Below, one piece after another: positions 7,983-35,784 of a stretch of 64,000 nt of DNA (the first letter of the stretch is position 1; each line of letters begins with the position of its first letter). Made by a program: the position numbers and the translations under genes. The stretch comes from a virus. Its lineage: Duplodnaviria; Caudoviricetes. The notes under the pieces were generated by a model. The model saw only the letters and a program-made list of their open reading frames with translations, did no database searches and was not told the origin of the DNA. The stretch is taken from the IMG/VR virus record IMGVR_UViG_3300028888_000047, positions 1 to 64,000 of that record. The stretch is one strand, 5' to 3'.

Positions 7983-8144
7983 TATTTTTTATATATTTTA
8001 GTTAAACATAACTTTCTACAAATATACAAAAAAAATGTTAAAAAAAGAAGCCAAAAAGCAAAAAAATAAGCACACCTTTGCAGATGTGCTTATCAATTAG
8101 ATAAGTAAATACTTGTTTACTATTTCATTATTATGAATAGCCAA

Positions 8145-17127: not shown

Positions 17128-17432
17128 AAGGGATGGGGCGAAAGCCCTATCTTTTTTATATATATGAGTACTTAATTAAGTACATATATAATAAGAGGCG
17201 GCTCAGTTGTAGTCGCCTTTTTTTATTGATTATCAACGGATGTGAAACCTTGGTATCCTGAGCTTTCCTACCTCAAAGATAATTATTTTAATTGATAGTG
17301 CCAAATTATTTTATTTAAAAAGTGTTAATAGAATTAATTTTTTTCTTTTTTGAAATTATACGTATAATTACACTATATTATTAAATATAATTTTGTATAT
17401 TTGCAAATAGAAACATTTAAAAGTTAATTATT

Positions 17433-18613: not shown

Positions 18614-18808
18614 ATGTGTACGACAATAACATTAGAAGAAAAAAGCGTTGATATTGTTCTTGACGCTTTAAGAGCGTTGAAGAATGAAATGTTAGATAAT
18701 ATGAACTTTAGTGATGAATATCACAATGAGATTGAAAAAGTTGAAAATTTGTTTATAAAGGCAAAGGATTCGTTCAGTGCCGCAAAGGTGATGGCGATGG
18801 AGAAATAG
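18614..18808 (+). CDS. Hypothetical protein
   Basis: Operonic 64-aa ORF. Confidence 0.65.
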   Translation: MCTTITLEEKSVDIVLDALRALKNEMLDNMNFSDEYHNEIEKVENLFIKAKDSFSAAKVMAMEK

Positions 18809-18884
18809 GTTGATATATTGGTTAGACATTATATTTATTATTGGTTTTTAAAACGTGGTGGCTTGTGATAAGTCGCCACTTTTT
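18809..18884 (+). ncRNA. Candidate antisense-to-start-codon segment plus terminator hairpin
   Basis: Reverse complement reads AAAAACCAATAATAAATATA-ATGTCTAACC; followed by GTGATA-loop hairpin and T run. Confidence 0.45.
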
Positions 18885-19102
18885 CTTTTACCATACTTAT
18901 CAACGGATATGAAACCTTGGTATTCTGAGTTTTCCCACCTCAAAGATAATCATTTTCATCCAATCTTGCAAATTTTTTTAGTTAATAACGGTTAATAAAA
19001 TAATTTTTTTTCTTTAACATTTTTTATAATTAAAAATTCGTTTTTTAAAAAATAAATGATTATCTTTCAAGCGTTAAGTTAAGCAATTAAAGAATAAGAG
19101 TT

Positions 19103-19402
19103 ATGACACATTTTTATGAGTTGTATAAGAGAGTTCCAAGAGCAAGACGCAAAACGCTTGCTAAATTCATTCACGAATTGAAGTGCTTATGCGGTCGCAA
19201 GTATCACGCTTGCGTTGTTGAAATGCTCGAAGATTGTGATGAAGATTACGTCTTTATTGAAGCACAAAAAATAATGGGTGATGAATACACAAAGTTTGTT
19301 GATGATGTGACTGAATTGTGTGATTCATATTCTATTCCTCGCAATAATATTTGTGATATGGATTTTCAATTAGAAATTAGTTTATACACTGATATGTATT
19401 GA
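19103..19402 (+). CDS. Hypothetical early protein
   Basis: Promoter at 19061. Confidence 0.75.
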   Translation: MTHFYELYKRVPRARRKTLAKFIHELKCLCGRKYHACVVEMLEDCDEDYVFIEAQKIMGDEYTKFVDDVTELCDSYSIPRNNICDMDFQLEISLYTDMY

Positions 19403-19794
19403 TTATAAGGTTAGTTGGATTTTGTTCTGTTTCTGTCATCTGAAACGTGTGGCTTGAGAAAGTCGCACGTTTTTTATTTTATTAACATTTAAAATTTGGT
19501 GGTTTCAATTTTTATTGTTATCTTTGAAGTGGGCAGCCAGGAAGAGCACGTGAGGAGACGTATGAATACAGTAAACATTCAAATGTTAATTAATTGTTAA
19601 AGTTAAAATAAAATTTTGATATTTCAATTTTTATTATTATCTTTCAGTAGTTAAACAATTAAAAAAGAAAGAAATTATGTTTTTATCATTTATCATTATA
19701 GTAGTTATTGCGGCTTTAATTCACGAAGGAATAAAGAGCCACGGTGATATGAAGTCGTGGGTTGAAAATCTTAAAAATACTGAGGAATAAAATT

Positions 19795-20028
19795 ATGGCA
19801 GTTAAATATATGAATACTATCAAGTTTTCAAAGGAGTTAACGCCAAAAGCTTTTCAAGCAAAGGTTAAAGAAGTTTTGGAAGAAAAAGTGTGCGAAACTC
19901 AAGAAGAAGCCGAGGAATTGGTGGAATCTATGGAGTTTGAATTGGAGTTATATTACGAGAATGGAACTGGCTTGTTGATGTCTATAAGGATTGGAAGACA
20001 AATGACGAGAATGGAACTGGCTTGTTGA
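19795..20028 (+). CDS. Hypothetical protein whose C-terminus is altered by a tandem duplication
   Basis: Start MAVKY; 50-bp duplication near the 3' end. Confidence 0.65.
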   Translation: MAVKYMNTIKFSKELTPKAFQAKVKEVLEEKVCETQEEAEELVESMEFELELYYENGTGLLMSIRIGRQMTRMELAC

Positions 20029-20054
20029 TGTCTATAAGGATTGGAAGACAAATG
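19955..20054 (+). repeat. Perfect 50-bp tandem duplication
   Basis: ACGAGAATGGAAC...GACAAATG twice. Confidence 0.95.
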
Positions 20055-20399
20055 AATCGTAAATAGGTACTTAATTAAGTATAAATATGGATGCTTTAAG
20101 GAGTATAATAGGTATTTTGGAGACCCCAATTGCAAAACGTAAGGGTGTAACAATTTCGGCTGAAGATTGTGCCATTTGGGTTGAGGAACTAAAGAAAGTG
20201 TTAAAAAAATGTTAAAGTAAAGAAAATATTTGGTAGTTCAAAAATAAATTATTATCTTTCAAGTGCTTAAATAAACAAATGATAAACAAAATATGTTTGG
20301 AGATATTCGTGACAGTAGTTAAACAAGAAGGTTGTAACCACCTTTATCTACGGCTGTGATAGGGTAATCAGTATATCAAAAGAATATAATTAATAAGTT

Positions 20400-20669
20400 A
20401 TGTTAGATAGCAAGTTAAAGTTAGACGAAAAAAGGGTTCGCCCTTTATACGAAATAGCAAAAGAGATTCGTTCTGATTGGAAGAACATCTATTTTGGCGC
20501 GAAACATTATCTTGGGGCAATGCTGACGATGAAGTCGATTGACGAGAAATATATGTGTGACGATGGTCGTACAATTGTAAACTATTTCCTCGCAAACGCA
20601 AGCAGTTGGAGGGGTGAAGTTGCTCGAAGAGTTAAGAAAGAACTCAATCAAATGTTAAAGGAAAAGTAA
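20400..20669 (+). CDS. Conserved-looking small phage hypothetical protein
   Basis: RPLYEIA..I..DW...YFLANA..WRG..A...K.EL pattern. Confidence 0.75.
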   Translation: MLDSKLKLDEKRVRPLYEIAKEIRSDWKNIYFGAKHYLGAMLTMKSIDEKYMCDDGRTIVNYFLANASSWRGEVARRVKKELNQMLKEK

Positions 20670-20807
20670 CTCTGTTGTTCTCATAATTCATAATTCGATT
20701 TAAGTTAGACTTTGGTTAAGCGTGTTGCTTGTGATAAGTAGCACGCTTTTTTGTTAAACAAAGTTAAGGAATTTGGTTATTTGGATTTTGTTTTGTATAT
20801 TTGCAAT

Positions 20808-20990
20808 ATATCATTCATACTTGTATTTTTTAGTTAGCATAACTTGGGTGGGTTGGTTCGCGATGAATAGATTCACTATTTTTTAAAAGACAATACTATT
20901 AGTTTCATAAACCATAAATTTGTTTTAAATATTTAATTTTAGGAAATTTGAATAATGAAAGTGGTGGCTTGTGATAAGTCGCCGCTTTTT
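20808..20990 (+). ncRNA. Promoter-driven non-coding unit with two antisense-start/hairpin modules
   Basis: TATATTTG at 20796; no ORF; hairpins plus T tracts ending ~20884 and ~20990. Confidence 0.55.
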
Positions 20991-21419
20991 CTTTTTGTGT
21001 GCATATAGAACAAGGATGGATGTGGAACTTTGGTATCCTAAGCTTTCCCACCTCAAAGATAACAGTATTTTTTCAAATAACCAAATTATTTTTGGCTTTT
21101 AACATTAAATTAACACAGTTGTTAAAATTGGGTTAAAACCTTATTTTTATTTGGAATTTTCAATTTTTATTATTATCTTTCAGCAGTTAAACAATTAAAA
21201 AGAGATTATGAAGAAGTTTAAGATTATTAATGGAAAGAAGCACAAGGCAATAGGTTACGCCTATGATGGAAAACCAATCGGTTGGATTGCTTGTGGTGAG
21301 AACGATTAAAAATAATTTAAAAATAAAGTAGATTATGCTTACAATTCAAATTCAGTTATTATGCATTATAGTAATGTTAAGTCTTATTCATTCCAAAATG
21401 AAATAAAGAATAGAAGATT

Positions 21420-21818
21420 ATGGCAGACGTTAAGGCATTTATCAGCAAGTGGCATGGTCGTACATTACAAGACGATGGCTGTGTAGTATCAAAGGAATTT
21501 AAGTCATTCCAAACAGCATTTGGCAATGCAATGAAGAAGATTGCCGAGAGTCTTGGTGGCGAGGTTGTGAACTACTCAAAGGGTCACTATGACATGAGTG
21601 GTTTCATTAAGAGGGGTGATAAGTATGTATATTTCTCTTATGACAATGCTCTTGGCAATGGTGGAAGGTCACACATTAACTTAAAGTTTTGTGATGGTTG
21701 GCGTTCTCCATTATTGATTAGGACAGCAAAGCATGAGAAGGACTACACTGGTGGTCACAATAACTTTGAGCGTTTTGAACGTTGCGAGACATTGATTGAC
21801 AAATTGTTGAATGAATAA
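21420..21818 (+). CDS. Hypothetical early protein
   Basis: 132 aa; RTA...DYTGGHN. Confidence 0.8.
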   Translation: MADVKAFISKWHGRTLQDDGCVVSKEFKSFQTAFGNAMKKIAESLGGEVVNYSKGHYDMSGFIKRGDKYVYFSYDNALGNGGRSHINLKFCDGWRSPLLIRTAKHEKDYTGGHNNFERFERCETLIDKLLNE

Positions 21819-21973
21819 GAATATATAACAAGGGTGTGTTGAAATGTGGGGATTGCCTTCGAAAGAAAAATCAAACCTTCCATACCCTTGTTTATATTTT
21901 TTCCACAAAATAATTTTGTCAATTGAAAATAATTTCGTATCTTTGCAACAGAAATCAAAAAGGAGATTAGTAT

Positions 21974-22420
21974 ATGGCAAAAGAAAAAAAAGTATTTAAG
22001 AGCAAGTTTTTCCTCGACCTTTTCTATGAGGTTATGGATGAATATTGGCTTGACAAAGACACCTATGTGATTATCTTCCAAGACATGACGGATTCGAATG
22101 GTGACACATATCATCTTGAAGTGGAATATCACAAGGATGAAGAAGAAATCACTTACACTCGTGTCTATGAGTTTGAGAATGTCCATGACATGTTTCCCTC
22201 GCATGTGTTCAAAAAGCAGATTGATGAATACATCTTGAAGAAGGTTGGTGTCATCAATGAAAATGATACCATTACCGAGGCCACCATTGAGGTGAAGTTG
22301 AAGTTGGCAGTTCCCTTGAACATGAGCGTTGGGGAATATGAGAGTTGGCTTGATTGCCTTTCAATCGATGTAACCAATGATGAGAAGGATATAAAGATAC
22401 TTGAAATTAATAAGAAATAA
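21974..22420 (+). CDS. Acidic hypothetical protein
   Basis: Promoter TATCTTTG at ~21938. Confidence 0.75.
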   Translation: MAKEKKVFKSKFFLDLFYEVMDEYWLDKDTYVIIFQDMTDSNGDTYHLEVEYHKDEEEITYTRVYEFENVHDMFPSHVFKKQIDEYILKKVGVINENDTITEATIEVKLKLAVPLNMSVGEYESWLDCLSIDVTNDEKDIKILEINKK

Positions 22421-22631
22421 AGGTTATGGCAAATGAATTGAAGAAGATGCGAGAGATTCGCATTGCGCAAGTTCAAGTTGGACTTGAAGGAGATAAATCG
22501 TGAGTATGACATCGCAAAAGGGAAGTAAGTGTTAAATAGAGTTAATTGCAAGAAAAAGTTGGGTTGATTTTTGGCTAATCCAATTTTTTTTCGTATCTTT
22601 GCACCATCAAACAATTAAACAATAGAAGATT

Positions 22632-23345
22632 ATGAGAAAGTTATCAGCAATTTACAGAAACGCAAAAGAAGAAGCAAGGATATTCTTCGCCCCAAATTCT
22701 TTTATTTGTGAGGTCAAAAATATGGCGACAAAAGAAATAACCGGAAAATTTGTTGTTGATTCAAACAGCAATGTATCTGATGCAGAAGATTTGTTGCCAA
22801 TTGACTTTGGCAATTATTACAAAGTTCCCTTTGAGCGCAAGAATGGAAAGATTGTATTATATCCTATCAATAAACAAAGGAGAGTTATCTGGTCAAACAA
22901 TGACTATGACGAATGGGAAGAAGCAATGGCTGACGAAGTAACTGACGAGGAAATAACACCCGAATATTACGCATTTTGTCGTGAGAATGACCTTGATGAC
23001 GAGAGAGTAAATCTCGATGTTGAAGTGGATGGCTATATTGTAGCCTTTGCAAGTCTTGGTTTGTGGAATGGCAGAAGGAATGGAGCAAAGCTTGTGGGAA
23101 CAAATGTTCGTGATATTCTTTATAGTAATGATGATTATGTTACGTGGTATTGCGACCCCCACAATGTTAAAGCTGAAATGATTCATCACGATGGAACTAA
23201 TTACGTTCTCTATCGCGTGGCAAGGAATAAAGAGTTGGCTGAACGCTTGGCAAATAAAATTGCCTATGATGGAATGAGTGAAGAACAATTTAGAAAAGCT
23301 ACGCGCTCACTGCGTGAATACGTTGCGCGAGTCTATGGTTGGTAG
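22632..23345 (+). CDS. Hypothetical protein
   Basis: 237 aa; LGLWNG and HHDGTN motifs; own promoter. Confidence 0.8.
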   Translation: MRKLSAIYRNAKEEARIFFAPNSFICEVKNMATKEITGKFVVDSNSNVSDAEDLLPIDFGNYYKVPFERKNGKIVLYPINKQRRVIWSNNDYDEWEEAMADEVTDEEITPEYYAFCRENDLDDERVNLDVEVDGYIVAFASLGLWNGRRNGAKLVGTNVRDILYSNDDYVTWYCDPHNVKAEMIHHDGTNYVLYRVARNKELAERLANKIAYDGMSEEQFRKATRSLREYVARVYGW

Positions 23346-23637
23346 ATAGATTGATGTTTGGTTTGTCATAAATGATGTTGTTTTTCAAAACGTGTTGTCT
23401 GCGAAGATGGCACGTTTTTTATATGTTAATTAAATGTTAAATCCACCAAAATATTTGGTGGTTTCAATTTTTATTGTTATCTTTGAAGTGGGCAGCCAGG
23501 AAGAGCACGTGAGGAGGCGTTGGTGAACTGTAAATGATTCGAATGTTAATTAAATGTTAATAATACAATATTATTTGGCTATATCATTTTTTATTATTAT
23601 CTTTAAGCATCAATTAAAAATAAAAGAGATTAGAATT

Positions 23638-23850
23638 ATGAAAAAGTATTGGTTATTAAACGTGGCTGGTGTCGGTGGTTATTCCATCATGGTACACTGC
23701 GAAGCAAACACAATTGAAGAAGCAGTTTGCAAAGCAGCAGAAGCAGACCTCTTTGATGATGAAGATGATGCTGAAAGAGCGTGGGGTGAAGAAGCAGATG
23801 ATGATACAATCAAGCATTTCAATAAATATGGTTTAACTCACGAACTTTAA
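23638..23850 (+). CDS. Acidic hypothetical protein (start MKKYW)
   Basis: Promoter at 23598 precedes ATG at 23638. Confidence 0.7.
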   Translation: MKKYWLLNVAGVGGYSIMVHCEANTIEEAVCKAAEADLFDDEDDAERAWGEEADDDTIKHFNKYGLTHEL

Positions 23851-24332
23851 GATATGGAAAAGGTTAAATGCGTTAGTTGCGGCTCCGATGTTGAGATTAA
23901 TATCTCAAAAGCCGTAGATGAACATGGTGAGGTGTTCCTTTGTCCAAATTGTGGTAAAAAGTTCAGATACACCAATAAATAAATTCTTGTGTTAAAAATG
24001 TTAATTCACTTGCATATATAAGAATTTATTCATATCTTTGCATCGTCAAAATAAAATTAATGTATAACAATTAAAAAACAAATAGTAAAATGAAGAAGTT
24101 GATTTAATAGTAGCAATTAATTAGCCAGTAGGTGCAATAAAAGTAATAAGACCTCGCACAGGCAACCCACAATGGTGTGGAAGTAATGTGTAAATAGAGT
24201 ATCTTATAATCCTACCTATCCTCAAAGTGCGGAGATAGTATCTAATTAATAGAGGGCAGCACCAAGCGAAGCCAAAAAGGAGTTGAAACCACTCTATCAA
24301 AGGTCGTGATTGCGGTAATCGACATATAAAAA

Positions 24333-24405
24333 GACTCGTTAGCTCAGTTGGTAGAGCACAACACTTTTAATGTTGGGGTCTTGGGTTCGAACCCCAAACG
24401 AGTCA
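24333..24405 (+). tRNA. tRNA-Lys(TTT)
   Basis: Full cloverleaf, GACTCGT/ACGAGTC acceptor, anticodon loop CTTTTAA, TTCGAAC T loop; no encoded CCA. Confidence 0.95.
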
Positions 24406-24697
24406 CGAAGAATTTATTATAAGATTTTTGTTTTGTATTTGAAGCGTGTTGCCTGCGAAGGCAACACGTTTTTCTTTTTATACATATTCATTTCAATTGC
24501 CTCACCTTGGTGAACAACCCTTTCACCTGTTTTCCCACCTCAAAGATAATAAATTTAATCCAATCTTGCAAATTTTTATTGTTAATTGATGTTAAAGAAA
24601 AAAGTTTTTTTATTAACATTTTTTACATATATTTTTTTGGAAATTAGAAATAAAATGATTATCTTTCCAACGTTAAACATTTAAATTTATATTAATT

Positions 24698-25369
24698 ATG
24701 TACAGCAATCAAATTTCAGACATCAAGGACTTCGCAAGAGGAATCAAGCGTGGTACATTTGGTTTGTATTGCGCAACGTTCACCGAAAAGAAGATGAACA
24801 AGTACCCAAATGGCACAATGCCTGCTGAGCGCAAGACAACCCCCGAAAACCCTTATTTGGGTAAGGTGTTCACCCTATCAGTATATCAGAACGCATGCAC
24901 GGGCGTAAACTATTATAATGTAGTAAAAAGTGAGTGCAAGCGTGAAGGAATCAGTTTTACTGATGAAGAGTTTGCAATAGCATTCCCAAAAGAGGGAACG
25001 TATTGCGAAGCAACCGAAGATGCGCTTGCAAACATCATCTTAAAGCACAACGACAAAGACCAAGAGTATCTTCGTCTTTACAAAGGCCGCAAACCCACAA
25101 AGGTGGTGTATTTCACAATCTACAATTATTCAATAGTTCCCGAAGACAGCGAACTGATGGCTGACATCAAGCGTTACGTTCCGGCCAAGAAGGAAAGCGC
25201 AAAACAAGAAGCTTTGGGAATCACCAATATTGTGGAAGTGAAACAGCCAAAGATTGAAAACGTGGTGTTCCTTGCGCAAGGTGATGACATCTATATCAAC
25301 CCTCGATTTGGAGTGCAAGCAATGTTCAATCTTGACAGCATTAACAAGATGTTCGCGCCCAAGAAGTAA
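24698..25369 (+). CDS. Hypothetical early protein
   Basis: 223 aa, own promoter; YLRLY motif. Confidence 0.8.
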   Translation: MYSNQISDIKDFARGIKRGTFGLYCATFTEKKMNKYPNGTMPAERKTTPENPYLGKVFTLSVYQNACTGVNYYNVVKSECKREGISFTDEEFAIAFPKEGTYCEATEDALANIILKHNDKDQEYLRLYKGRKPTKVVYFTIYNYSIVPEDSELMADIKRYVPAKKESAKQEALGITNIVEVKQPKIENVVFLAQGDDIYINPRFGVQAMFNLDSINKMFAPKK

Positions 25370-25672
25370 TGGGTACTTAATTAAGTACGTAGTTGGATTT
25401 TGTAGCATAGGCATTTTAATTTTTTGATTGAAGCACGCTGCTCATGAGAGTGGCGTGTTTTTTTTATATTTATTAACATTAAAAATTTGGCTATTTCAGT
25501 TTTTATTGTTATCTTTGAAATGGGCAAACAGAAGACGCTCGTGAAGAGGCGTATGAATACAGTAAACATTCAAATGTTAATAAAATGTTAAAGTGGGAAA
25601 AATATTTGGTAATATCAAATTTAATTATTATCTTTCAAGCGTTAAGTTAAACAATTAAATAAATAAGGTATT

Positions 25673-25864
25673 ATGAAGATTAAAGGCTTAAAGAAGTGTG
25701 GAATGGTTGCCGAGAAAGTCAAGGGCAAGAACGGCAAGGTGTATGAGACCGGTGAGCAGATTCAGCAGTATGTGGCTCCTGATGGCTTCAAAGGAACGTA
25801 CAATAGATTCATTAGAGAAGCTGAACGCGGCAATCTTCACGGCTGCATAATTGCTTCAAGTTAA
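25673..25864 (+). CDS. Hypothetical protein
   Basis: Promoter at 25629. Confidence 0.7.
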   Translation: MKIKGLKKCGMVAEKVKGKNGKVYETGEQIQQYVAPDGFKGTYNRFIREAERGNLHGCIIASS

Positions 25865-26009
25865 CATATAGAAGTTGTTGGGTACTGAAAGCATTTAAGA
25901 TTAATCCCCAACGCTTCAAGTGTTAAAAAAGTGTTAAAGTCACGAAAAAATTTGGATATATCAAAAAAAATGATTATCTTTGCAACGTAAACAATAAAAA
26001 ACAAATAAT

Positions 26010-26135
26010 ATGAGCAAGAAAAGTTTTAAGAAATCAACGAAATTAAAGCGAGTGATAGCAATCCCCGGACGTGTCATTAAGAACTCCAAGGGAGAGGTAG
26101 TTAAACAGCTTTACAATATCCTCAAAGTAGGATAA
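26010..26135 (+). CDS. Small basic ORF (41 aa, MSKKSFKKSTK...)
   Basis: Promoter at ~25975 and A-rich leader. Confidence 0.5.
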   Translation: MSKKSFKKSTKLKRVIAIPGRVIKNSKGEVVKQLYNILKVG

Positions 26136-26224
26136 AGTTCCAACAAAGGTTAACGGCAAACTAAATGTAGCTAATTAATGCGGAATGTCGGTTAAAGCCG
26201 TTACGGTAGGATAAAACAAACCAC

Positions 26225-26342
26225 AGCGAATGGAACATCGGCCACTCGGCCAATTCTCTAAGTCCCGAGCCGCCACTATCCAAAGCGAATGGAACATCGG
26301 CCACTCGGCCAATTCTCTAAGTCCCGAGCCGCCACTATCCAA
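26225..26342 (+). repeat. Perfect 59-bp tandem duplication
   Basis: AGCGAATGGAAC...ACTATCCAA twice. Confidence 0.95.
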
Positions 26343-26499
26343 GAATGGGGAAACCTACCTTTACCTTTTTTAACTAATTAAAACGTAACAGTGAGCGTAT
26401 GAAGAGAAATAAACCTCCGCCCTAAAGGGATTATATGATATTTAATTAGATTTTTTATGAATACTATGATAGTGAATACAATGAGACGAATAATGATTA

Positions 26500-27007
26500 G
26501 AGGCCGACCCTAAAGGTCTCTCCCAAGCTATCTGAGCAATGAATGAGTTTAGGCTGATAATAGTGCGAGAAAGGCAAACCTCATTGGCAAGGATTGGCTT
26601 ATCAGCGTAATCGATAGCACCGCCCCCATATAAATAATCCGGAGTATTGAAAGAGGGTAGGTGAGTGCAACAAGGTGAATCTCGGCCGGACTGATGGGCG
26701 GAGTACGAGGTTGCACAAATTAATAGGGCGCGTTGGTCTGCCATTTGGCTCTGTTGCGTTGACAACGATGCCATAGATAGGCCGCTCGTTTGCGCCCATA
26801 TTCAAAGGGGTTTAGGGCCGCCACCCATTCGCGCTTTACAAAGCGGTAATTTTTAGGCACGCCCGTTGCACCGCCGTTGCGGCGCATCACCCCACACTTT
26901 TTAACAGGGCATAGTGCCGATATTATTCGGCTCGCGTAATTAATGATGCCCAACAAAAGGGGAATTGCCCCGCCCAACGGTAATATCACACCGCAGGGTT
27001 AGGTCTC
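26500..27007 (+). ncRNA. Large (~510 nt) structured ncRNA, unclassified
   Basis: GC-rich island; the two ends pair (GAGGCCGACCCT with AGGGTTAGGTCTC); many internal helices; abuts a tRNA-like gene. Confidence 0.7.
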
Positions 27008-27023
27008 CCCTTTTACTTTTTCT

Positions 27024-27207
27024 CTTTCTTTAGCTCAGTTGGTAGAGCATCACGGCAGAGTGCTATAGGAAACAAATGCCTCAAGTTCATAGGAAACAAA
27101 CGCCTCCAAAGTGAGGAAGCCGTACGAATAAAGAGTTCCTGGTAAGTTCTCCGTTTGTTTAACTATGATAAACGTGAAGGTCGTTGGTTCGAGTCCAACA
27201 AGTTAGA
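27024..27207 (+). tRNA. tRNA-like gene with 118-nt insertion replacing the anticodon loop
   Basis: Canonical D arm and T arm; TCACG/CGTGA anticodon stem; acceptor stem with two U-U mismatches. Confidence 0.75.
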
Positions 27208-27517
27208 GCAAATACTTTGCTTTCATAATTTGTTAGTTTTTGATTGTTTGACACGAAGGTGTAGCTTAATTGCTACGCCTTTTGTCGTATATATGCTTTT
27301 CGACGACAGAACCTTGGTGATACAACCCTTTTATTTGTTTCCCCACTTCAAAGATAATCATTTTTATTGAATCTTGCAAATTTTTATTGTTAATTGATGT
27401 TAATAACAGTAAGAAAAAATATTTCAAATTTTAAGTTTTTTTAATAATAAAAATTTTGAAATTTGAAATTAAAATATTATCTTTCAGGCGTTAAACAATT
27501 AAATAATATAATAATGT

Positions 27518-27736
27518 ATGGCAACAAAGAAACATATATGTGGCATATACAAAGGTTATAAGATTATTCAAGAATATGAACAAATTGGTAACGGCATATA
27601 TGGAATATTCTATCCTTGCGTTAAAAAGCGTAACAGGTGGTATAAAAGAAAAAACTTTGGTTCAACAAAGTTAGAAAGTTTAAAAAAATGTATTGATATT
27701 TGGGAAAAAGAGAAAGAACAAACAACAATTAAATAA
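27518..27736 (+). CDS. Hypothetical protein
   Basis: Promoter at 27478. Confidence 0.7.
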   Translation: MATKKHICGIYKGYKIIQEYEQIGNGIYGIFYPCVKKRNRWYKRKNFGSTKLESLKKCIDIWEKEKEQTTIK

Positions 27737-27744
27737 CTAAAGTT

Positions 27745-28020
27745 ATGGAAACAATTAAAGGAAAAACGGTTCAAGTTCTTACTATTGATTGGATTGATGA
27801 TTGTTCAACAATTCGTCAAAGTGTAGATACATTTGAAGATGTTGAAGATGCTCGCAAGGCATTATCACAGTTTGATGCGGAAGTAAATGATTGGGTTAAA
27901 TCAACACGTCCCGATTGGAAACGTGAAGGTGATGGAATTAATTTCGTTGAATATGGAAAAGAAGGATATTACTTTGATTCTCACGCTGTTGCAAAAATAA
28001 CAATGAGTGTTGTTAAGTAA
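27745..28020 (+). CDS. Hypothetical protein
   Basis: Operonic ORF. Confidence 0.7.
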   Translation: METIKGKTVQVLTIDWIDDCSTIRQSVDTFEDVEDARKALSQFDAEVNDWVKSTRPDWKREGDGINFVEYGKEGYYFDSHAVAKITMSVVK

Positions 28021-28334
28021 GGTACTTAATTAAGTGCATATATAATATAAATAATGTACGCGCGAAGGTCAAATGTTAATTAAATGTTAAACCTGAAAAA
28101 AAATTTGGAGAATTGAAAATTAATTATTATCTTTCGCTCAGAAATTAAAAATGAGAATTAAAAAATAGAAAATTAAAACTTAAAAATTAAAATTTGAAAT
28201 GAAACGTTAAAGAAAAGTTAAAATCGAAAAAAAATTTGGAGATTAAAAAATAAATGATTATCTTTCAAGCACAAAATTAAAAACGAATAAAAAATCAATT
28301 AAGTTAAACAATTAAATTATAGGAGATTAAAACT

Positions 28335-29066
28335 ATGGCAAAAAACGTTTGTACTAACAAGAGTTTGATTAAGGCAGAGATTAACCACTATCTGGAACTG
28401 CTTCGTAACGCAATCGCATTCAATGGTCGTTCTCACGTTCCCGTGTACTTCGCAGGCGTTCACAAGGAGGCCATCGAAGCCATCAAGGAAATGGGCATCA
28501 AGGTCGAGGAAAAGGCCGGTCGCTGGACTACCAAGTTCTATGCACCTAAGAAGGGTACTAAGGCGTGGAACACCCTTTTCAACGGCTCAAAGGTTTTGGA
28601 AGAGGCCAAGGCTCACAACGAGGCCAAGGTAGCTGCTGCTAAGGCAGAGAAGGAGGCCAAGGCTGCTAAGGCTAAGGCTAAGGCTGAAAAGAAGGCTGCT
28701 AAGGAGAAGGAGGCCAAGGCTAAGGCTGCTGCTAAGGCAGAGAAGGAGGCCAAGGCTGCTAAGGAGAAGGAGGCCAAGGCTAAGGCTGCTGCTAAGGCTG
28801 CTAAGGCTGAAAAGAAGACTGCTGCTGCTAAGGCTGCAAAGCCCAAGAAGGATGCAACCGTGAAGGCCGCAAAGCCCAAGACCGAGAAGAAGGCTGCTGC
28901 TAAGGCTGCAAAGCCCAAGAAGGAGACCAAGCCAAAGGCTGAAAAGAAGGCTGCTGCTAAGGCTGCTAAGGAGACCAAGCCAAAGGCTGATGCTGCTCCA
29001 AAGGCTGCTCCTGCTCCAACAGCCGAGCCTGCTCCAACAGCCGAGCCTGCTAAGACTGAGGCTTAA
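28335..29066 (+). CDS. Histone H1-like Ala/Lys/Pro-rich protein
   Basis: ~90-aa globular N-terminus, then AKAAK/KPK repeats; strongly biased GCT/AAG codons. Confidence 0.8.
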   Translation: MAKNVCTNKSLIKAEINHYLELLRNAIAFNGRSHVPVYFAGVHKEAIEAIKEMGIKVEEKAGRWTTKFYAPKKGTKAWNTLFNGSKVLEEAKAHNEAKVAAAKAEKEAKAAKAKAKAEKKAAKEKEAKAKAAAKAEKEAKAAKEKEAKAKAAAKAAKAEKKTAAAKAAKPKKDATVKAAKPKTEKKAAAKAAKPKKETKPKAEKKAAAKAAKETKPKADAAPKAAPAPTAEPAPTAEPAKTEA

Positions 29067-29122
29067 ACCAAACAAATGCAAGGGTGGGAAACTACCTGCC
29101 CTTGCTTTATTAAAAAATTAAA

Positions 29123-29437
29123 ATGAATGTTTTTTTAAAAGAAAATAATATGATTGATAAAGATAACGCAAAAACCATTTCAATATTGGTATGTTTCGAG
29201 GGCAAAAATCGTCGTATCGAAATCAACCCAAAGAAGTGTGTAACCAACGCAAACAAGGACTTTTCGTACAGCGCGCAATATAAGGCTGACAATGGTAAGA
29301 CCTATTTGGTTAAGGTGGTGTCCATCAATGGAACCGAGGGCGCAAAGGCTGATGTTACTATCACAAATCGTAGCGGTAAGCAAATGATTGCCGAGCGTCA
29401 CGGGGTAGATGTAAGATTCCACCGCTACATTTTCTAA
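29123..29437 (+). CDS. Hypothetical protein
   Basis: 104-aa ORF. Confidence 0.7.
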   Translation: MNVFLKENNMIDKDNAKTISILVCFEGKNRRIEINPKKCVTNANKDFSYSAQYKADNGKTYLVKVVSINGTEGAKADVTITNRSGKQMIAERHGVDVRFHRYIF

Positions 29438-29563
29438 GACTATGTTGCTGCGCTATACAATGGGGCAAATTGCCCCTTATTTTGCCTTGTTTAAGGAAGG
29501 CTTATTTCGTGCGTATGGCCCTCAATATAGGCCAAAACGAACAAAATTAAAAGGGTATCAAAA

Positions 29564-29959
29564 ATGCAAGAAAAAAAGACGTTAGCTGACGGCATTCACA
29601 ACAAAATACGCAATCTTTTCTTATGGTCTGCTGTAAATAAGCCAGACTATATCGTAGGGAAAATTTCAGAATATCTTGAAATACCTATTGATTCAATCAA
29701 GCTAAGAGAGGAAAGAAGCGTAAAAGGCGATGACGGCGAAATAGCATATTCAATGTACACCTTGCTTGTGTGTGATTCAGAGTTTATACTGCGCTTTACA
29801 CGCAAGGTAGAAGAGCCAAAAGAAATTGAAGTGCCAAAGGTCGTTAATAAGCCTAAGAAATGGTATCAATTTGGAGAGCCTGAAACTGAGGTTATAATAG
29901 AAAAACAGCCTTCAAAAGAAAAGCCACGTGTGTATTGGTTATTGTCTTCGGTAGAATAA
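29564..29959 (+). CDS. Hypothetical protein
   Basis: 131-aa ORF followed by hairpin. Confidence 0.7.
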   Translation: MQEKKTLADGIHNKIRNLFLWSAVNKPDYIVGKISEYLEIPIDSIKLREERSVKGDDGEIAYSMYTLLVCDSEFILRFTRKVEEPKEIEVPKVVNKPKKWYQFGEPETEVIIEKQPSKEKPRVYWLLSSVE

Positions 29960-30150
29960 ATAAAATGCTGCTCAAAAAAGAGTAGCATTTTTTACATTTA
30001 TTAACACCAAAAATTTGGCGCTTTAATTTTAAATGATTATCTTTGATGTGGGAAAATAAATGAAGGCGTTGTAACACCAAGATGAAAAAATAAGAGAATA
30101 ATTTGGTTTTCTCAATATTTATTTGTATATTTGTAAGAGTTAAACAATAT

Positions 30151-30234
30151 GGCCGCATGGCGGAATTGGTAGACGCGAGGGACTTAAAATCCCTTGGGCA
30201 TTTGCCCGTCCGGGTTCGAGTCCCGGTGTGGCCA
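30151..30234 (+). tRNA. tRNA-Leu(TAA)
   Basis: Cloverleaf with long variable arm, anticodon loop CTTAAAA; own promoter at 30126. Confidence 0.95.
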
Positions 30235-30508
30235 CATTTATTTTTTCATGTTGTAGTTTTAAATGGCTTTCGCTCATCACGAGCGGGAGCCATTTTTCCT
30301 TTCATGCCACTCCCTGTGGAGGAACTCATTAGTATCCTATTGTTCCTACCTCAAAGATAACAGTATTTTTTCAAATATCCAAATATTTTCTTGTGTTTAA
30401 CACTATTTTAACACTTATGTTAATTAAATGTTAAAATTGAAATTTTATTTTGTTTTTAAAAAATAAATGCTTATCTTTCCCACGTTAAACAATTAAATTA
30501 ATATTAAT

Positions 30509-30700
30509 ATGAATAATTGGGTAAAGAAAACGAAGCCAAAGAAAAAAAGGTTGAATAAGATTCAGTTTATTAGGAAATATAAACGTTTTAACATCTTTAC
30601 AAAGGGTGGCGAAAATAGAACCGTAACCGCTCCTTATCCAATGACTTTGGATTATGCAATGTATTATTTTAACGCATTATCAATTGGTTCAGCAGAATGA
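30509..30700 (+). CDS. Basic hypothetical protein
   Basis: Promoter at 30472. Confidence 0.65.
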   Translation: MNNWVKKTKPKKKRLNKIQFIRKYKRFNIFTKGGENRTVTAPYPMTLDYAMYYFNALSIGSAE

Positions 30701-30975
30701 GTAGAAACGCTATTAGGGCTTATAACGAAGCCATTGAAAAGGAAACGAGACAGAAGATTCAAGAGCTTTTGTCAGCAAATAAAATGTCGTATGACTTCAC
30801 CGTTGATTCACAGGGATATATTGAGATAACTGTTGAAAACGGTGATTGGAAACATGACCATATTGCATTAAAGCATATAATGAGAGAGGCGGGATATGTT
30901 CCATTTGGCCGCCATATAATTGAAGATGATGATTGTGGCGATGATTCATTCTCGGCAATTTATCTTTATAGATAA
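30697..30975 (+). CDS. Hypothetical protein
   Basis: GDWKHDH motif; 4-bp overlap. Confidence 0.7.
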   Translation: MSRNAIRAYNEAIEKETRQKIQELLSANKMSYDFTVDSQGYIEITVENGDWKHDHIALKHIMREAGYVPFGRHIIEDDDCGDDSFSAIYLYR

Positions 30976-31026
30976 TGTTCCACGTGAAACAATAATAAAG
31001 CAATAGGTACTTAATTAAGTATAATT

Positions 31027-31872
31027 ATGCAAGGATTAAAAGATTTTAAATATTCAAACGATAAACACATTGATTTGTTTTTTGTCAATTGTGAGGAAAC
31101 TCCGTATAGCCGTAGGCAATTGCTTTCGGAAATGCCAGCGTTTATAAGTTTCATGGAGCGTTTCAATTGTTCATTGGACGAACTGTGTGAGATTCTTGAT
31201 ATGTATGGCATTAGAGATTCAGATTTGTTTGAATATACCATAATTGCAGGAAATTATCCTATTGCCAAAAAATATATTTACACAGTAAAATATGTGCAAA
31301 ATGGATGGCAAGGCCAAAAAAGAGTTGAAACGTATCATGATGTATATTTGACTTGTAATCAATATGTAACTTTATCGCTTGATACTGTTGCAAATGAATT
31401 GATTAAAAGGCATTTTCCTTATCTTGCAGTAACACCATTTACAAAGGTTGAAAAAAGGTTTAAGGATAGTATTAAAAATCTTCCAAAAACATTACTAGCA
31501 AAGGTATCTAATTTAAACACCTTTATGCTATTTGAAAACGATTTAACAATTGGTGATTTAATTAAACTGTATACTGAAGGAAACTATGCTGATATAGAGA
31601 TTGAAAAACCCTTATATTCTGTATATTCAGAACATGGCGATATTTACATCACTTTGGATGAAAATAAAGGTGGTTGGACATTAAATTTATCTTACAGCAT
31701 ATTAGCAAATAAAGATTGGAAAGCCATTGAAGATAAGCACGTGTTTTCTATCTGCTTATATGATGAAAATGGCGAACGAATAAAAGGCAAATGGTTTGAT
31801 GGAAAGCAAAAAGATGCACCATATTTCAATCATCCATTGGTTAAGGAACTAAAGAAAATACTTACAACTTAA
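31027..31872 (+). CDS. Hypothetical protein flanked on both sides by GTACTTAA palindromes
   Basis: 281-aa ORF; palindromes at 31007 and 31877. Confidence 0.8.
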   Translation: MQGLKDFKYSNDKHIDLFFVNCEETPYSRRQLLSEMPAFISFMERFNCSLDELCEILDMYGIRDSDLFEYTIIAGNYPIAKKYIYTVKYVQNGWQGQKRVETYHDVYLTCNQYVTLSLDTVANELIKRHFPYLAVTPFTKVEKRFKDSIKNLPKTLLAKVSNLNTFMLFENDLTIGDLIKLYTEGNYADIEIEKPLYSVYSEHGDIYITLDENKGGWTLNLSYSILANKDWKAIEDKHVFSICLYDENGERIKGKWFDGKQKDAPYFNHPLVKELKKILTT

Positions 31873-32006
31873 TAGGGTACTTAAATAAGTATATTGCGTT
31901 AAATAAATGTTAAAGTTATAATTTTATTTGATTATTTAAAAAAATATTATTATCTTTCAAGCGTAAACAATAAAACAATATTAATAATTAAGGAGAAATA
32001 AATCCT

Positions 32007-32300
32007 ATGGGAAAGAAAAAAGATACAACGGAGATTCTTAACGAACTCAAAGAATATATTGGCAAAGATGGCCAAGTGGCATTTGAACATGGATTCAGGA
32101 AACCAACGTTCAAACTTGAAGGATATAAGTACAAGTGTACAATGGTTTCTTATAAGGTAATGTTCGGATATAAATACTATCCGGTTACCAACGAAAAGAG
32201 AACATGTAATTACCCTTTATCGTTCCTTAGCTATTCAGTGCTGAACACTCTTTTAAAAGCAATTAAAAATTACGAAGAATACTGTAAAAAAGAAGCTTAA
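32007..32300 (+). CDS. Hypothetical protein
   Basis: Promoter at 31951. Confidence 0.7.
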   Translation: MGKKKDTTEILNELKEYIGKDGQVAFEHGFRKPTFKLEGYKYKCTMVSYKVMFGYKYYPVTNEKRTCNYPLSFLSYSVLNTLLKAIKNYEEYCKKEA

Positions 32301-32306
32301 TAAATT

Positions 32307-32522
32307 ATGATAGTAAGCAAAATTAAATGGGAAACTGACGGAAACACTGTAGATTTGCCAAATGAAGTTGAAGTTTCTGATGGGTTAAACGATGACCAAA
32401 TATCAGATTATCTTTCAGATACTTACGGATGGTTGGTTGAGTCATTTTCAGTACCAATGACCAATGATGATATTGACGGTTTCGGCTGTTATGTTAATAA
32501 AGTTGAGGGAATGGTCAGTTAA
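32307..32522 (+). CDS. Small acidic protein
   Basis: IKWETD...LP...ISDYLSD.YGWLV.SF pattern. Confidence 0.7.
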   Translation: MIVSKIKWETDGNTVDLPNEVEVSDGLNDDQISDYLSDTYGWLVESFSVPMTNDDIDGFGCYVNKVEGMVS

Positions 32523-32670
32523 TTAATAAAATTTAACCTAAAAAATTTCTTTTTCTCAATAATTATTTGTATCTTTACAACACGAAATAAAAGGGAGTGG
32601 TTGATGAAATAAACAAACCTCAGTAGGTTTTGATGTTCACCTATTCCGAGCACGAATTAGACGTGCTCAA

Positions 32671-32744
32671 GGGCTCGTAGCTCAGTTGGTTAGAGCAACA
32701 GACTCATAATCTGGAGGTCGTAGGTTCAAGCCCTACCGGGCCCA
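32671..32744 (+). tRNA. tRNA with CAT anticodon (Ile2 or elongator Met)
   Basis: Cloverleaf GGGCTCG/CGGGCCC, loop CTCATAA; lacks initiator features. Confidence 0.9.
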
Positions 32745-33221
32745 CAATTTAGCAAACGCATATAGGTAGTAGCGACTATCTATGTTTGCTATTTCAAGGA
32801 CAAAACCTTTTTTAAATGGGCGTTGCAAACGTAAGGGGAAGAGCGTTTGCAACGTTTTTTATTAACCCATTCAATTAACATTTATTAACTAAAATAATTT
32901 TGATATGTCATTTTTTATTATTATCTTTGAAGTGGGCAACCAGGAAAAGCTCGTGAGGAGGCGTTGGTGAACTGTAAATAGTTCGAATGTTAATTAAATG
33001 TTAAAGTGGTAATTTTATTTGTTTTTTAAAAAATAAATTATTATCTTTCAATCAAAGAAAATAAATAAGGAGATATTAATTATGGCATATAGAGATAAAA
33101 TAACGTTGCATATCTATTGGGATGATGGTGTCACTGTTGAATGCCGTTATTTTCCATCAAAGAAAGCTGCAAAGAAATATGCAAAAGACAATGGTTGCGT
33201 TGGTTATAAAATTGATTAAAT

Positions 33222-33617
33222 ATGGCAAAGGAGTTAGTAAAAAACAAAAACATTGAGAGCAGTATTAACTATGCTGATTCTTTAATGATTGCTATTGGCG
33301 AACTTGAAGCAAAGGCTTTAAGTGAGTGTATGAACTTCTTAAAGGGGCTATTATCTCTTAATGGCGGAAAGATTGAGTTTCACGAATACGATGTAGATGG
33401 CATCCAAACTGATGACAACTGTTTCTACGTTAAATACAACGGTGGGGCGCATCCTGAATATGCTTCAAATTGTTTCTCTGATGTTAAATCGGTAGTCATT
33501 TATGGCGAAAAAATCTATCTCAATATCGAAGATTGTGAGGAATATCCAATAGAAGAACTGGATGACAGGGAAGTTATTGATATGTGCTTATACATTTATT
33601 CTAATTTAATGGATTAA
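33222..33617 (+). CDS. Hypothetical protein
   Basis: YNGGAHPEYASN motif; operonic. Confidence 0.75.
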   Translation: MAKELVKNKNIESSINYADSLMIAIGELEAKALSECMNFLKGLLSLNGGKIEFHEYDVDGIQTDDNCFYVKYNGGAHPEYASNCFSDVKSVVIYGEKIYLNIEDCEEYPIEELDDREVIDMCLYIYSNLMD

Positions 33618-33619
33618 AT

Positions 33620-33841
33620 ATGGCAAAGGAATTAACAAGAACAGGAGTTGTTGGTTTAGAACTGACAAGGGAAGAAGTAAACGATGTCTTGGGAGCAGTT
33701 AAGTCATTAATTCGCAAGGCTCAGTGCCGTGAAGTAAACGAAATTGTGTTAGACCAACTTTCTCACATTGAGGATGAACTTGATGCTGTGGATAGCACTC
33801 TCACTGGTATTTTGGAGTTAGACGAAGATGAAGAGATTTAA
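33620..33841 (+). CDS. Acidic hypothetical protein
   Basis: Operonic ORF. Confidence 0.7.
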   Translation: MAKELTRTGVVGLELTREEVNDVLGAVKSLIRKAQCREVNEIVLDQLSHIEDELDAVDSTLTGILELDEDEEI

Positions 33842-33999
33842 AATATGAATGATAGAAGATATTATGACCCAATTGATGGGCATAGAATTTCCCCCCATTC
33901 AGCCGCAAAAACACGTAGTATGAGGGAGATTAAGAGTGATTTTAACAAGCACTTGCAAAATCATTGCAAATCAAAAGTTAAACGTTAAAGCATATTAAT

Positions 34000-34308
34000 A
34001 TGAGTAAGGAAACAATTAAAATGAATCAAATCCGTATAACGCGGATAGGTCTTAAAGAAGTGCTCAATATGGCTGAGCAAGTGTCAAATTCGCATCGTCA
34101 CACCATTCGAGAGAATTGGAATAAGGAGGATGACAAGGATTGCCGTAAGGCGTTGTATAAGGCTCATAGAGGGCTTGCAAAGAGTCGCGCCATCGTTCGT
34201 GAATGCCAAGCTCAATTGCGTGCCACAAAACGCGAAATAAGAAGGCTTAATTACCTACACGATTTCCGCTTAAATGCCATCGCTGAGCATAGAAGCATTT
34301 TTGAATAA
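34000..34308 (+). CDS. Basic coiled-coil hypothetical protein
   Basis: 102-aa ORF. Confidence 0.7.
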   Translation: MSKETIKMNQIRITRIGLKEVLNMAEQVSNSHRHTIRENWNKEDDKDCRKALYKAHRGLAKSRAIVRECQAQLRATKREIRRLNYLHDFRLNAIAEHRSIFE

Positions 34309-34450
34309 AGTGTTAAAGAAATGTTAAAAATTGGATTTCATTTCTTTATCCAATTTTTTTCTTGTATATTTGCAATGTTGAAAGACAAAAAGATAACGAA
34401 TTAAGTCGCCAAGCGTCTGACCGCGTAAGTCTATATGCTTTCAACATCAT

Positions 34451-34529
34451 CGCTGAGAAGCTGAATATTGGCAAAAGCGCAAGGTGGTAAAACATCTTGA
34501 AACAATAGGTTCAAATCCTATCACAGCGG
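34451..34529 (+). ncRNA. tRNA-like RNA 1 (extended anticodon arm, TGGTAAA tip)
   Basis: CGCTGAG/CACAGCG acceptor, GCT/AGC D stem, ATAGG-TTCAAAT-CCTAT T arm. Confidence 0.6.
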
Positions 34530-34535
34530 CTTATT

Positions 34536-34638
34536 TGTGCTTTACCAAAGAAACGGAGGTAACTCTAGGACAAATGGGGCTTATGGTAAATAAGCTGATT
34601 CTACGGAATCTTCACAGGTTCGAATCCTGTAGGCACAA
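34536..34638 (+). ncRNA. tRNA-like RNA 2 (Tyr-GTA-like, expanded D loop, G33)
   Basis: TGTGCTT/AGGCACA; GCTTA-TGGTAAA-TAAGC; GATTC-TACG-GAATC variable arm; ACAGG/CCTGT T stem. Confidence 0.8.
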
Positions 34639-34644
34639 CTTATT

Positions 34645-34747
34645 TAGAGGATACCAAAGAAGTTGACGCAAGTCTAGGACAAATGGACCTCATGGTAAAT
34701 GAGGTGATTCTACGGAATCTTCAAGGGTTCGAATCCCTTTCCTCTAA
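34645..34747 (+). ncRNA. tRNA-like RNA 3 (paralogue of RNA 2)
   Basis: TAGAGGA/TCCTCTA; CCTCA-TGGTAAA-TGAGG; AAGGG/CCCTT; stems covary with RNA 2. Confidence 0.8.
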
Positions 34748-35128
34748 CAAAAAAACCATATTTAAAACCTCCTTTCTTGAGCGGTTGGCAACGGGTTCAC
34801 CCCCAATGCTGACCGCTTTTCTTGTATATATACATTTGCTGGCTTGCACCGTACAACGGTCTTCTGTGGCCTGGTTTTCCCACCACAAAGATAATCATTA
34901 TATTTTAAATTTCAAAATATATTTTGTTAAAAAAAATTAATTAAAAAAGATTTTTATTTTAAACTTTATTAACTAAAATAATTTGGTAGTGTGTAGTAAT
35001 ATTACTATCTTTGATGTGGGATTTCCAGGCATTCTATATACCACGAGCTGTTGTGCATACAAAAAAAAAAGAGTCAATAGCATTAAGCCATCAACCCTTT
35101 TTGAGTATAATATGAAAGAAGATTTTCT

Positions 35129-35305
35129 TTATTTTATTTCAAGAATTTGTGATACTTGCTCGTCGCCAATAACAAATTCGTTTGCATCAGCATCTTCCGC
35201 TTGCGCCCTTGCAGCATCAAGAGCGTCGCCCTCATTTCTAAACTCTCCTTCTACCACTGTTGTATAGGTGGCATTATAATTAAGTCTAATTGTATATTTT
35301 GCCAT
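35129..35305 (-). CDS. Small acidic protein (58 aa, MAKYTIRLNY...)
   Basis: Manual translation; last gene of the minus operon. Confidence 0.65.
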   Translation of the reverse strand: MAKYTIRLNYNATYTTVVEGEFRNEGDALDAARAQAEDADANEFVIGDEQVSQILEIK

Positions 35306-35329
35306 AATTCGATTTAGTTTTTTTTCTAG

Positions 35330-35683: not shown

Positions 35684-35784
35684 TATATATTTAATTGATT
35701 AAAATTATTAATGTATGTAGCAAATATACAAAAAAAACGCGATAGAAACAAATCTACCACGTTAAATAATGTTAATCAACTAAA

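Follow-up and report, generated by a model that had tools for sequence, protein, structure and literature searches.

Short non-coding segments, most of which contain the triplet CAT and all of which end at a terminator hairpin, recur in the early region of a jumbo phage. An earlier note on this DNA proposed that they constitute a modular small-RNA system that silences mRNAs at the start codon. Do these segments pair with start regions and, if so, which of them and with which genes? We analyzed this question in the first 64 kb (64,000 nucleotides; hereafter, the window) of the 317,464-bp virus record IMGVR_UViG_3300028888_000047 of IMG/VR. It is quite possible, although we hold the view tentatively, that a subset of the early trailers, together with one gene-less unit, are base-pairing RNA elements that occlude start regions. 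Judged by sequence, there are at least three, and probably four, good candidates for RNAs that the phage encodes and that target start regions by base pairing.

CAT-containing trailers of the early cassettes

The phage is a Bacteroidota jumbo phage of 317 kb with 32% G+C and the standard genetic code, and it encodes tape-measure, tail-lysin, and SbcC-like genes. The minus strand carries most genes, and 16-35 kb forms a plus-strand island of small genes, mostly of unknown function. The early region of the phage is 16-37 kb and is made of small cassettes. Each cassette begins with a promoter of the host type (-33 TTTG, -7 TAnnTTTG) and a stereotyped leader; then come a tRNA or one to a few small genes, a trailer of 20-70 nt, and a plus-strand-specific intrinsic terminator. 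The promoter motif is the consensus of the Bacteroidota sigma-A factor (as cited in PMC7366714), to which approximately 40 matches were found within 20 kb of the early island. Two promoter classes were distinguished. The class-1 promoter is TATCTTTC, followed by the stereotyped leader GTTAAACAATTAAA..ATTATG. The class-2 promoter, TATCTTTG-NN-GTGGGAAAAC, is confined to 16.4-36.9 kb in a search of the whole genome.

Several relatives were used for comparison. The contigs L022 and L023 from ENA share 85-95% DNA identity with the window phage. G001 is a 401-kb IMG/VR phage with 275 reciprocal-best proteins in common (mean identity 64%), and it has the same early architecture with another -7 box (TACCTTTG-CAGTGGGGAAACAG). 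L047, L064, and L135 are fragments of further relatives.

We counted as a spacer any stretch of 20 nt or more within 16-36 kb that separates a stop codon or tRNA end from a terminator hairpin. This gave 14 spacers, two more than the earlier note used, and they were delimited after its claim had been read. The twelve segments listed there were all found at the positions given, each between a stop codon or the 3′ end of a tRNA or tRNA-like gene and a hairpin followed by a T-run. The recurrence of CAT also held, with 13 of the 14 spacers containing the triplet and 18 copies in total. Mononucleotide shuffles gave 5.7 spacers and 7.5 CATs (none of 5,000 shuffles reached 13 spacers; P = 4e-4 for the total), and dinucleotide shuffles gave 7.9 spacers (P = 0.002) and 9.9 CATs (P = 3e-4). 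The observed/expected ratio of CAT was 2.44 in the spacers versus 0.61 in the other non-coding DNA of the region, and CAT was the strongest outlier among the 64 trinucleotides in the spacers (z = 4.2; next, 2.2). The spacers of G001 contained 15 CATs versus 8.2 expected (z = 2.6, P = 0.013, rank 2 of 64), which is weaker than in the window phage. CAT was also present in nine of ten related 3′ flanks of the phrog_13953 gene. Thus, the enrichment in CAT is genuine and is seen again in a relative. Some of the CATs belong to copies of the repeated palindrome GTACTTAATTAAGTAC that have AT after them, or to the motif TTAACAT upstream of promoters.

On the opposite strand, the ATGs corresponding to these CATs had a mean context score of 0.27, compared with -4.4 to -6.0 for other antisense ATGs and 3.2 for real starts. 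The base at the implied -3 position was A in 10 of 18 cases, as had been described; this is approximately the rate at real starts (58%) and therefore adds little support.

Terminator-like sites numbered 31 versus 12.6 in shuffles, indicating that the terminators are real. They form a family of related hairpins, as the earlier note had supposed, with GNRA-like loops (GTGA, GAGA, and GCGA) and covarying stems. The idea in that note of a conserved hairpin handle was not supported, as the hairpins diverge with compensating changes and behave as ordinary, plus-strand-specific terminators. In the minus orientation, the G-U pairs are lost (C-A instead) and no U-run follows. Rfam covariance models detected only three tRNAs at the gathering score, and nothing relevant at E<=1.

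Predicted pairing of the trailers with start regions

We compared the spacers with the start regions of the phage genes. Exact 11-mer complementarity of all spacers to start regions was counted 71 times, against 28.3 +/- 7.7 in shuffles, whereas internal coding windows showed no excess. In this genome, the enrichment over matched controls that the earlier note suggested looking for is thus present. Exact runs anchored at the ATG were examined against the 426 gene starts of the phage, with composition-matched non-start ATGs as controls. Runs of at least 12 were found for 7 of 18 (2.4 expected), runs of at least 14 for three (0.46 expected), and there was one run of 19 (0.05 expected).

At the level of single elements, the islands of conservation coincide with the CAT-containing stretch, and the hairpins and flanks diverge, at a mean protein identity of 64%. 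The seed between the stop and the terminator of the parent gene is more conserved than its flanks in three trailers, S1, S2, and S8. No promoter motif was seen inside the upstream genes of the trailers. The candidate elements and one predicted target are as follows.

20670-20748, plus strand: S1 (20670-20717) with its terminator (20718-20748), in the 3′ untranslated region (UTR) of the phrog_13953 gene; conserved seed ATTCATAATTCGATTT..GTTAGACTTTG
20772-20890, plus strand: putative stand-alone small-RNA unit; promoter 20772-20803, seed 20808-20832, hairpin and U-run 20848-20890
27211-27283, plus strand: S2 (27211-27254), the putative anti-leader TTTCATAATTTGTTAGTTTTTGATTGTTTGAC in the trailer of a tRNA-like gene, with its terminator (27255-27283)
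35066-35128, minus strand: S8 (35103-35128), conserved AATCTTCTTTCATATTATACT in the 3′ UTR of the 58-aa gene 35129-35305, with its terminator (35066-35102)
35291-35325, minus strand: start region of the 58-aa gene (..CTAAATCGAATTATGGC), predicted target of S1

S1 contains a 16-nt block that was invariant in six sequences from four phages, as was ATTCATAATTCGATTT plus GGTTA(G/A)ACTTT in this set, and the stretch between the stop codon and the block is variable. The seed is largely unpaired in the predicted fold. The S1 terminator shows three compensatory pairs in addition to fixed U-G/G-U pairs, and the latter indicate that it is plus-strand specific. The seed CATAATTCGATTT is predicted to pair with the start of the 58-aa gene at 35305, and the two partners have changed in concert in G001. 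The difference lies in the distal part of the duplex, on both sides: the window pair is CATAATTCGATTTA(A)GTT with ..AACTAAATCGAATTATG, and the G001 pair is CATAATTCGATTTTTTGG with CCAAAGAAACGAATTATG. The start motif at 35305, AATCGAATTATG, is kept in L135. The start of the homologue in G001 is AACGAATTATG, whose changed distal part matches the S1 of G001 itself. The sequence TCGAATTATG has three copies in the genome, namely S1 and the starts of the genes at 75913 and 35305. In a comparative prediction, the orthologous genes 16573, 13189, 35305, and 133066 ranked in the top 10 of approximately 450 start regions in both phages. The controls for S1, which were same-permutation or reversed sequences (n = 9), gave zero orthologous top-10 targets.

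The unit at 20772-20890 has a Bacteroidota-type promoter, TTTG-N20-TATATTTG (motif match only), followed by approximately 75 nt and then a hairpin with U6. By motif, it is therefore a short non-coding unit bounded by its own promoter and a Rho-independent terminator. L064 has the identical 29-nt seed, and the minimum-free-energy and centroid folds both leave the 5′ 24 nt unpaired. Positions 20814-20832 are identical (19/19) to the plus strand at genome positions 190985-191003, so that they are antisense to -15..+4 of an AAA+ ATPase (PF00004) gene. An anchored run of at least 19 was expected 0.05 times in the set of 18. In the whole genome, ATACAAGTATG was found only in the seed of this unit and at the ATPase start, where the motif is AAAAAATACAAGTATGAA. 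The relative L130 retains these 19 nt at its ATPase start; in the relatives, the ATPase locus and the small-RNA locus lie on separate short contigs. The ATPase gene (locus at genome positions 189865-190989 and upstream) directly follows a DnaJ homologue in the relatives.

S2 was identical to G001 at 35 of 37 positions, beside a gene body, hairpin, and downstream DNA that were barely alignable. The predicted duplexes of S2 with the 17 class-1 leaders had a mean energy of -18.9 kcal/mol versus -11.8 kcal/mol for late starts (p = 2e-7). In G001, S2 forms 31 pairs spanning the whole leader plus AUG, and the four non-Watson-Crick positions are all G-U. The opposite strands of S2 and the leader pair worse (-9.3), the real strands being better in 17 of 17 cases. 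Together with the wobble-only differences, this favors pairing between a plus-strand RNA and mRNA. Scanning IMG/VR with the S2 seed gave a match only in G001, and scans with the other two seeds gave matches in unrelated, apparently coding contexts (L127-L129).

S8 was identical at 21 of 21 positions in G001 and L135, and the hairpins were different. In a genome scan with the complement of S8, the only match was the phage contig L135. This 13.8-kb contig (JAILCK010000321.1) is binned in a Lachnospiraceae metagenome-assembled genome and carries the 58-aa gene of this phage group together with S8, a terminator, and the class-2 promoter; this is probably a phage contig that was binned wrongly.

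We propose that the G/U-rich, CAU-containing single strand that immediately precedes the terminator of these elements base-pairs with the A-rich leader and AUG of certain phage mRNAs. Ribosomes would thereby be kept from loading, as has been shown for GibS, a small RNA of Bacteroides. The base-pairing subset would consist of the small RNA 20808-20890, the 3′ UTR seeds 20670-20717 and 35103-35128, and the tRNA-like trailer 27211-27254. Pairing is predicted with the AAA+ ATPase gene, with the 58-aa gene at 35305 and three others, and with the class-1 early leaders generally. We infer that these RNAs accumulate, pair with their targets in vivo, and repress them by pairing. A more elaborate version seems doubtful: in such an anti-leader network, S2 would wobble-pair with class-1 leaders for global early shut-off, the trailers and the small RNA would tune individual genes, and class-2 read-through transcripts would serve as leader-mimic sponges that set the timing.

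Several results weigh against this proposal. The whole-set tests were null in G001, with 29 11-mers versus 27 and anchored runs at expectation. The ungapped best duplex with a start region beat shuffles in only 2 of the 14 spacers, and a self-complementary palindrome supplies part of the k-mer excess of the window. The reverse complement of a trailer also resembles a genuine leader plus ATG, and pairing of a trailer with its own operon was not enriched. For S2, the 17 leaders share one motif, the strand asymmetry rests on 3-5 sites, and a rank-based test for conserved targets gave a weak result, 2 versus 0-1 in controls. S8 is conserved yet had 0 conserved phage targets in the comparative prediction with G001.

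Two other roles were tried and rejected. Pairing of trailers with the start regions of their own operon (mRNA circularization) gave scattered ranks and no enrichment. Antisense micro-proteins were rejected as well, as the open reading frames (ORFs) span 3-20 codons and show no conservation (7 vs 27 aa; 15 vs 8 aa).

No specific or conserved partner was found for eight of the twelve flagged segments, which are listed below with the results for each.

18809-18879, plus strand: trailer (18809-18854, CAT at 18827) and hairpin (18855-18879) after the 64-aa gene 18614-18808; no specific partner found, and the G001 counterpart is without CAT
19403-19473, plus strand: trailer (CAT at 19437) and terminator (19442-19473) after gene 19103-19402
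20885-20989, plus strand: trailer with two CATs and terminator (20957-20989), faced by the inverted promoter 21054-21085; the hairpin shows a compensatory T-A to C-G change in L023; no target found in the best-duplex test against start regions
23346-23418, plus strand: trailer (CAT at 23367) and terminator (23387-23418) after gene 22632-23345; only CATAAAT is common to G001, and no conserved target was found
25370-25461, plus strand: trailer with the palindrome GTACTTAATTAAGTAC and CATs at 25406 and 25412, and terminator (25430-25461); no conserved target found
30236-30295, plus strand: trailer of a tRNA-Leu (CAT at 30247) and terminator (30261-30295); only TTTTTCAT is common to G001, and no target was found
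34749-34820, plus strand: trailer after two tRNA-like genes (CAT at 34757) and hairpin (34779-34820); no target found
8065-8144, minus strand: trailer with CAT and terminator (8065-8094), outside the early region

The anti-start system of the earlier note is therefore supported for a subset, as S1, the 20808 unit, and S2 are conserved and have specific predicted partners. A uniform battery was not supported, in view of the eight partnerless segments and the null whole-set tests in G001. These eight may have the same role with host targets, or they may be a by-product of the cassette structure.

Alternative explanations for the trailers

The opposite strand might be the functional one, a reading that we consider improbable but worth stating. 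Inverted class-2 promoters would drive minus-strand RNAs through the hairpins, and these RNAs would carry a leader-like sequence plus AUG. Such RNAs would be cis-antisense to early mRNA 3′ ends, would mimic leaders or act as sponges, or would offer ribosomes a loading site. The layout agrees with this reading. The 16 class-2 elements (TATCTTTG-NN-GTGGG, window 16401-36874) strictly alternate between plus and minus, which means that every second cassette is closed by an inverted promoter facing its terminator. An inverted promoter faces eight of the terminators at a distance of 60-90 nt, as listed below.

18941-18972, minus strand: example of an inverted class-2 promoter, TTTG-N19-TATCTTTGAGGTGGGAAAAC, facing a terminator
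17274-17305, 21054-21085, 24541-24572, 27349-27380, 30352-30383, and 34886-34916, minus strand: other facing class-2 promoters
34982-35013, plus strand: facing class-2 promoter

This layout is conserved in G001, where seven terminators each have an inverted class-2 promoter 60-90 nt downstream. G001 has 24 class-2 copies, only in its early region (362-382.5 kb), and there the class-2 promoters are arranged as back-to-back divergent pairs, 113 bp apart. Scanning IMG/VR with the class-2 motif gave single chance matches only. The minus-orientation hairpins lose G-U pairs and lack U-runs, so class-2 transcripts should read through into the trailer. The antisense ATG contexts are start-like (0.27 vs -4.4) and resemble the class-1 leader. 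However, CAT is equally present at six terminators without an inverted promoter, and the antisense micro-ORFs are short (3-20 codons) and unconserved. Conservation is lowest between the inverted promoter and the hairpin; the initial transcribed sequence of class 2, GTGGGRAAAC, is conserved, and the remainder of the transcript is not. In addition, the 20808 unit has its own promoter and terminator on the plus strand, and the wobble pattern of S2 favors plus-strand pairing. If produced, the RNAs from the inverted promoters, as perfect complements of the trailers, might have a role as sponges or one that involves RNase III.

It is likewise not very probable that the trailers are by-products of cassette shuffling, either linkers of the composite early-promoter/stem-loop type (PeSLs) or inverted remnants of a leader plus start, with no RNA function of their own. 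Small ORFan genes are flanked by repeated modules of a promoter and a stem-loop, and whole cassettes distinguish close relatives. Exactly the gene 19103-19402 is missing from L022, with the junction at the microhomology AGTTA; in the same contig, other genes replace 21209-24475, and insertions and deletions are bounded by motifs. The spacers share words, such as TAGTTGGATTTTGT at 19412 and 25390, and PeSLs are documented in T4-type phages (PMC2839356, PMC4122927). The lack of whole-set start-region complementarity in G001 also agrees with shuffling. Neutral remnants, however, would not stay identical over 21-35 nt at 64% protein identity beside diverging hairpins, and decay is not expected to give the two-sided change of S1 and its target or the wobble-only differences of S2. 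Cassette history can thus explain the words common to the spacers, and the seeds may have originated as inverted copies of start regions, but it does not explain the conservation of the seeds.

Least probably of all, the conserved islands would be bound as DNA by a protein of the phage or host, for instance a regulator that also binds class-1 leader DNA, and would act near terminators as roadblocks or operators: S2 does hold an inverted copy of the leader core GTYAAACAATYAAA, and other repeated motifs abound (TTAACA pairs upstream of promoters and a 16-bp palindrome), but the islands differ from one another and thus offer no common site, they extend through CAT beyond the leader core, and the leader differences are wobble-compatible transitions, which are relevant to RNA and not to DNA recognition.

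Related systems and further observations

To our knowledge, RNA-based regulation in Bacteroidota phages has hardly been explored, and targets have been defined for few small RNAs of lytic phages. If base pairing by the trailers is correct, start codons in this phage group would be occluded by the 3′ ends of the phage's early transcripts, a natural example of start-codon-directed antisense control in organisms without Shine-Dalgarno sequences. One RNA aimed at the leader of a whole promoter class would be a compact device for timing or shut-off. With the seed and target pairs at hand (S1 and 35305, 20814-20832 and the ATPase, and S2 and the class-1 leaders), reporter assays could test the idea directly.

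Repression by Bacteroides small RNAs proceeds by pairing of a seed with a start region that has no Shine-Dalgarno sequence (PMC7366714). In anatomy and proposed mode, the elements appear closest to one of them, GibS (Ryan et al. 2020, PMC7366714), which shares with 20808-20890 a host-type promoter, a conserved single-stranded 5′ seed, and an intrinsic terminator. Extended pairing with start regions lacking Shine-Dalgarno sequences is likewise common to both, being predicted in our case. Unlike GibS, 20808-20890 is phage-encoded, its predicted targets are phage genes, and the two have no relation by sequence or Rfam.

The elements are also near, in anatomy and mode, to small RNAs derived from 3′ UTRs or tRNA trailers. 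In enterobacteria, the 3′ UTR-derived RNAs CpxQ, SroC, and DapZ and the 3′ETS-leuZ RNA carry a seed between the stop codon or tRNA end and a shared terminator. S1, S8, and S2 similarly have a seed that precedes a shared terminator and is better conserved than its surroundings. We know of no Hfq or ProQ in Bacteroidota. Unlike in enterobacteria, several such trailers are gathered here in the early region of a single phage, one of them complementary to the leader of a whole promoter class.

An antisense RNA of another type is the OOP RNA of phage lambda, a short RNA transcribed from a promoter downstream of cII. The inverted promoters are similar in that a promoter downstream of a gene points back at the 3′ end of that gene. 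OOP ends at its own terminator and overlaps the 3′ end of the coding sequence, whereas here the transcribed stretch is unconserved, and the weakened minus-orientation hairpins without U-runs do not provide a short antisense RNA with a terminator of its own.

PeSLs mediate modular shuffling in T4-type phages (PMC2839356, PMC4122927). The early region resembles them in its repeated terminator/promoter modules flanking small non-essential genes, and relatives gain or lose whole cassettes. With approximately 40 promoter motifs and 17 terminators per 20 kb, it is a plastic region of repeated composite promoter/stem-loops flanking small ORFs. PeSLs differ in being recombination linkers with sigma-70 promoters, and their descriptions are without inverted facing promoters or conserved anti-start trailers (PMC2839356, PMC4122927). 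At 5100-5180 of L022 (compare window 19060-19445), a class-1 promoter and leader are fused to a trailer and terminator, forming an empty cassette of approximately 90 nt without a gene.

Other features of the genome were noted. The 16-bp perfect palindrome GTACTTAATTAAGTAC has at least 10 intergenic copies, directly after stop codons or just before starts (window 17168, 20066, 25373, 28021, 31006, 37870, 38525, 38860, 39111, and 39308), and copies were likewise seen in G001 and other relatives; the element may act as a protein site or as an RNA hairpin. A repeat module of late genes, TTAACATTATTT-AACGTGGAATATTTGGTTATTCCACGTT-TTTTTTGTATATTTG, was found at genome positions 74010, 81968, 94927, 110472, 113407, 116915, 130825, and 182692 and at window 35721-35784. 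It is a terminator-promoter fusion, in which the -33 TTTG lies inside the terminator loop and the T-tail continues into the -7 box.

The early region encodes a SprT-like protein (window 35785-36438, minus strand). A search for viral relatives of one early protein found none. A perfect tandem duplication of approximately 48 bp (gagaatggaactggcttgttgatgtctataaggattggaagacaaatga) lies at 19960-20055, at the end of gene 19795-20028. The tRNA-like genes at window 27000-27210 and 34536-34747 have canonical T arms and were not called by ARAGORN or Rfam; for the counterpart position in G001, ARAGORN predicts a tRNA whose anticodon has four bases (aatt).

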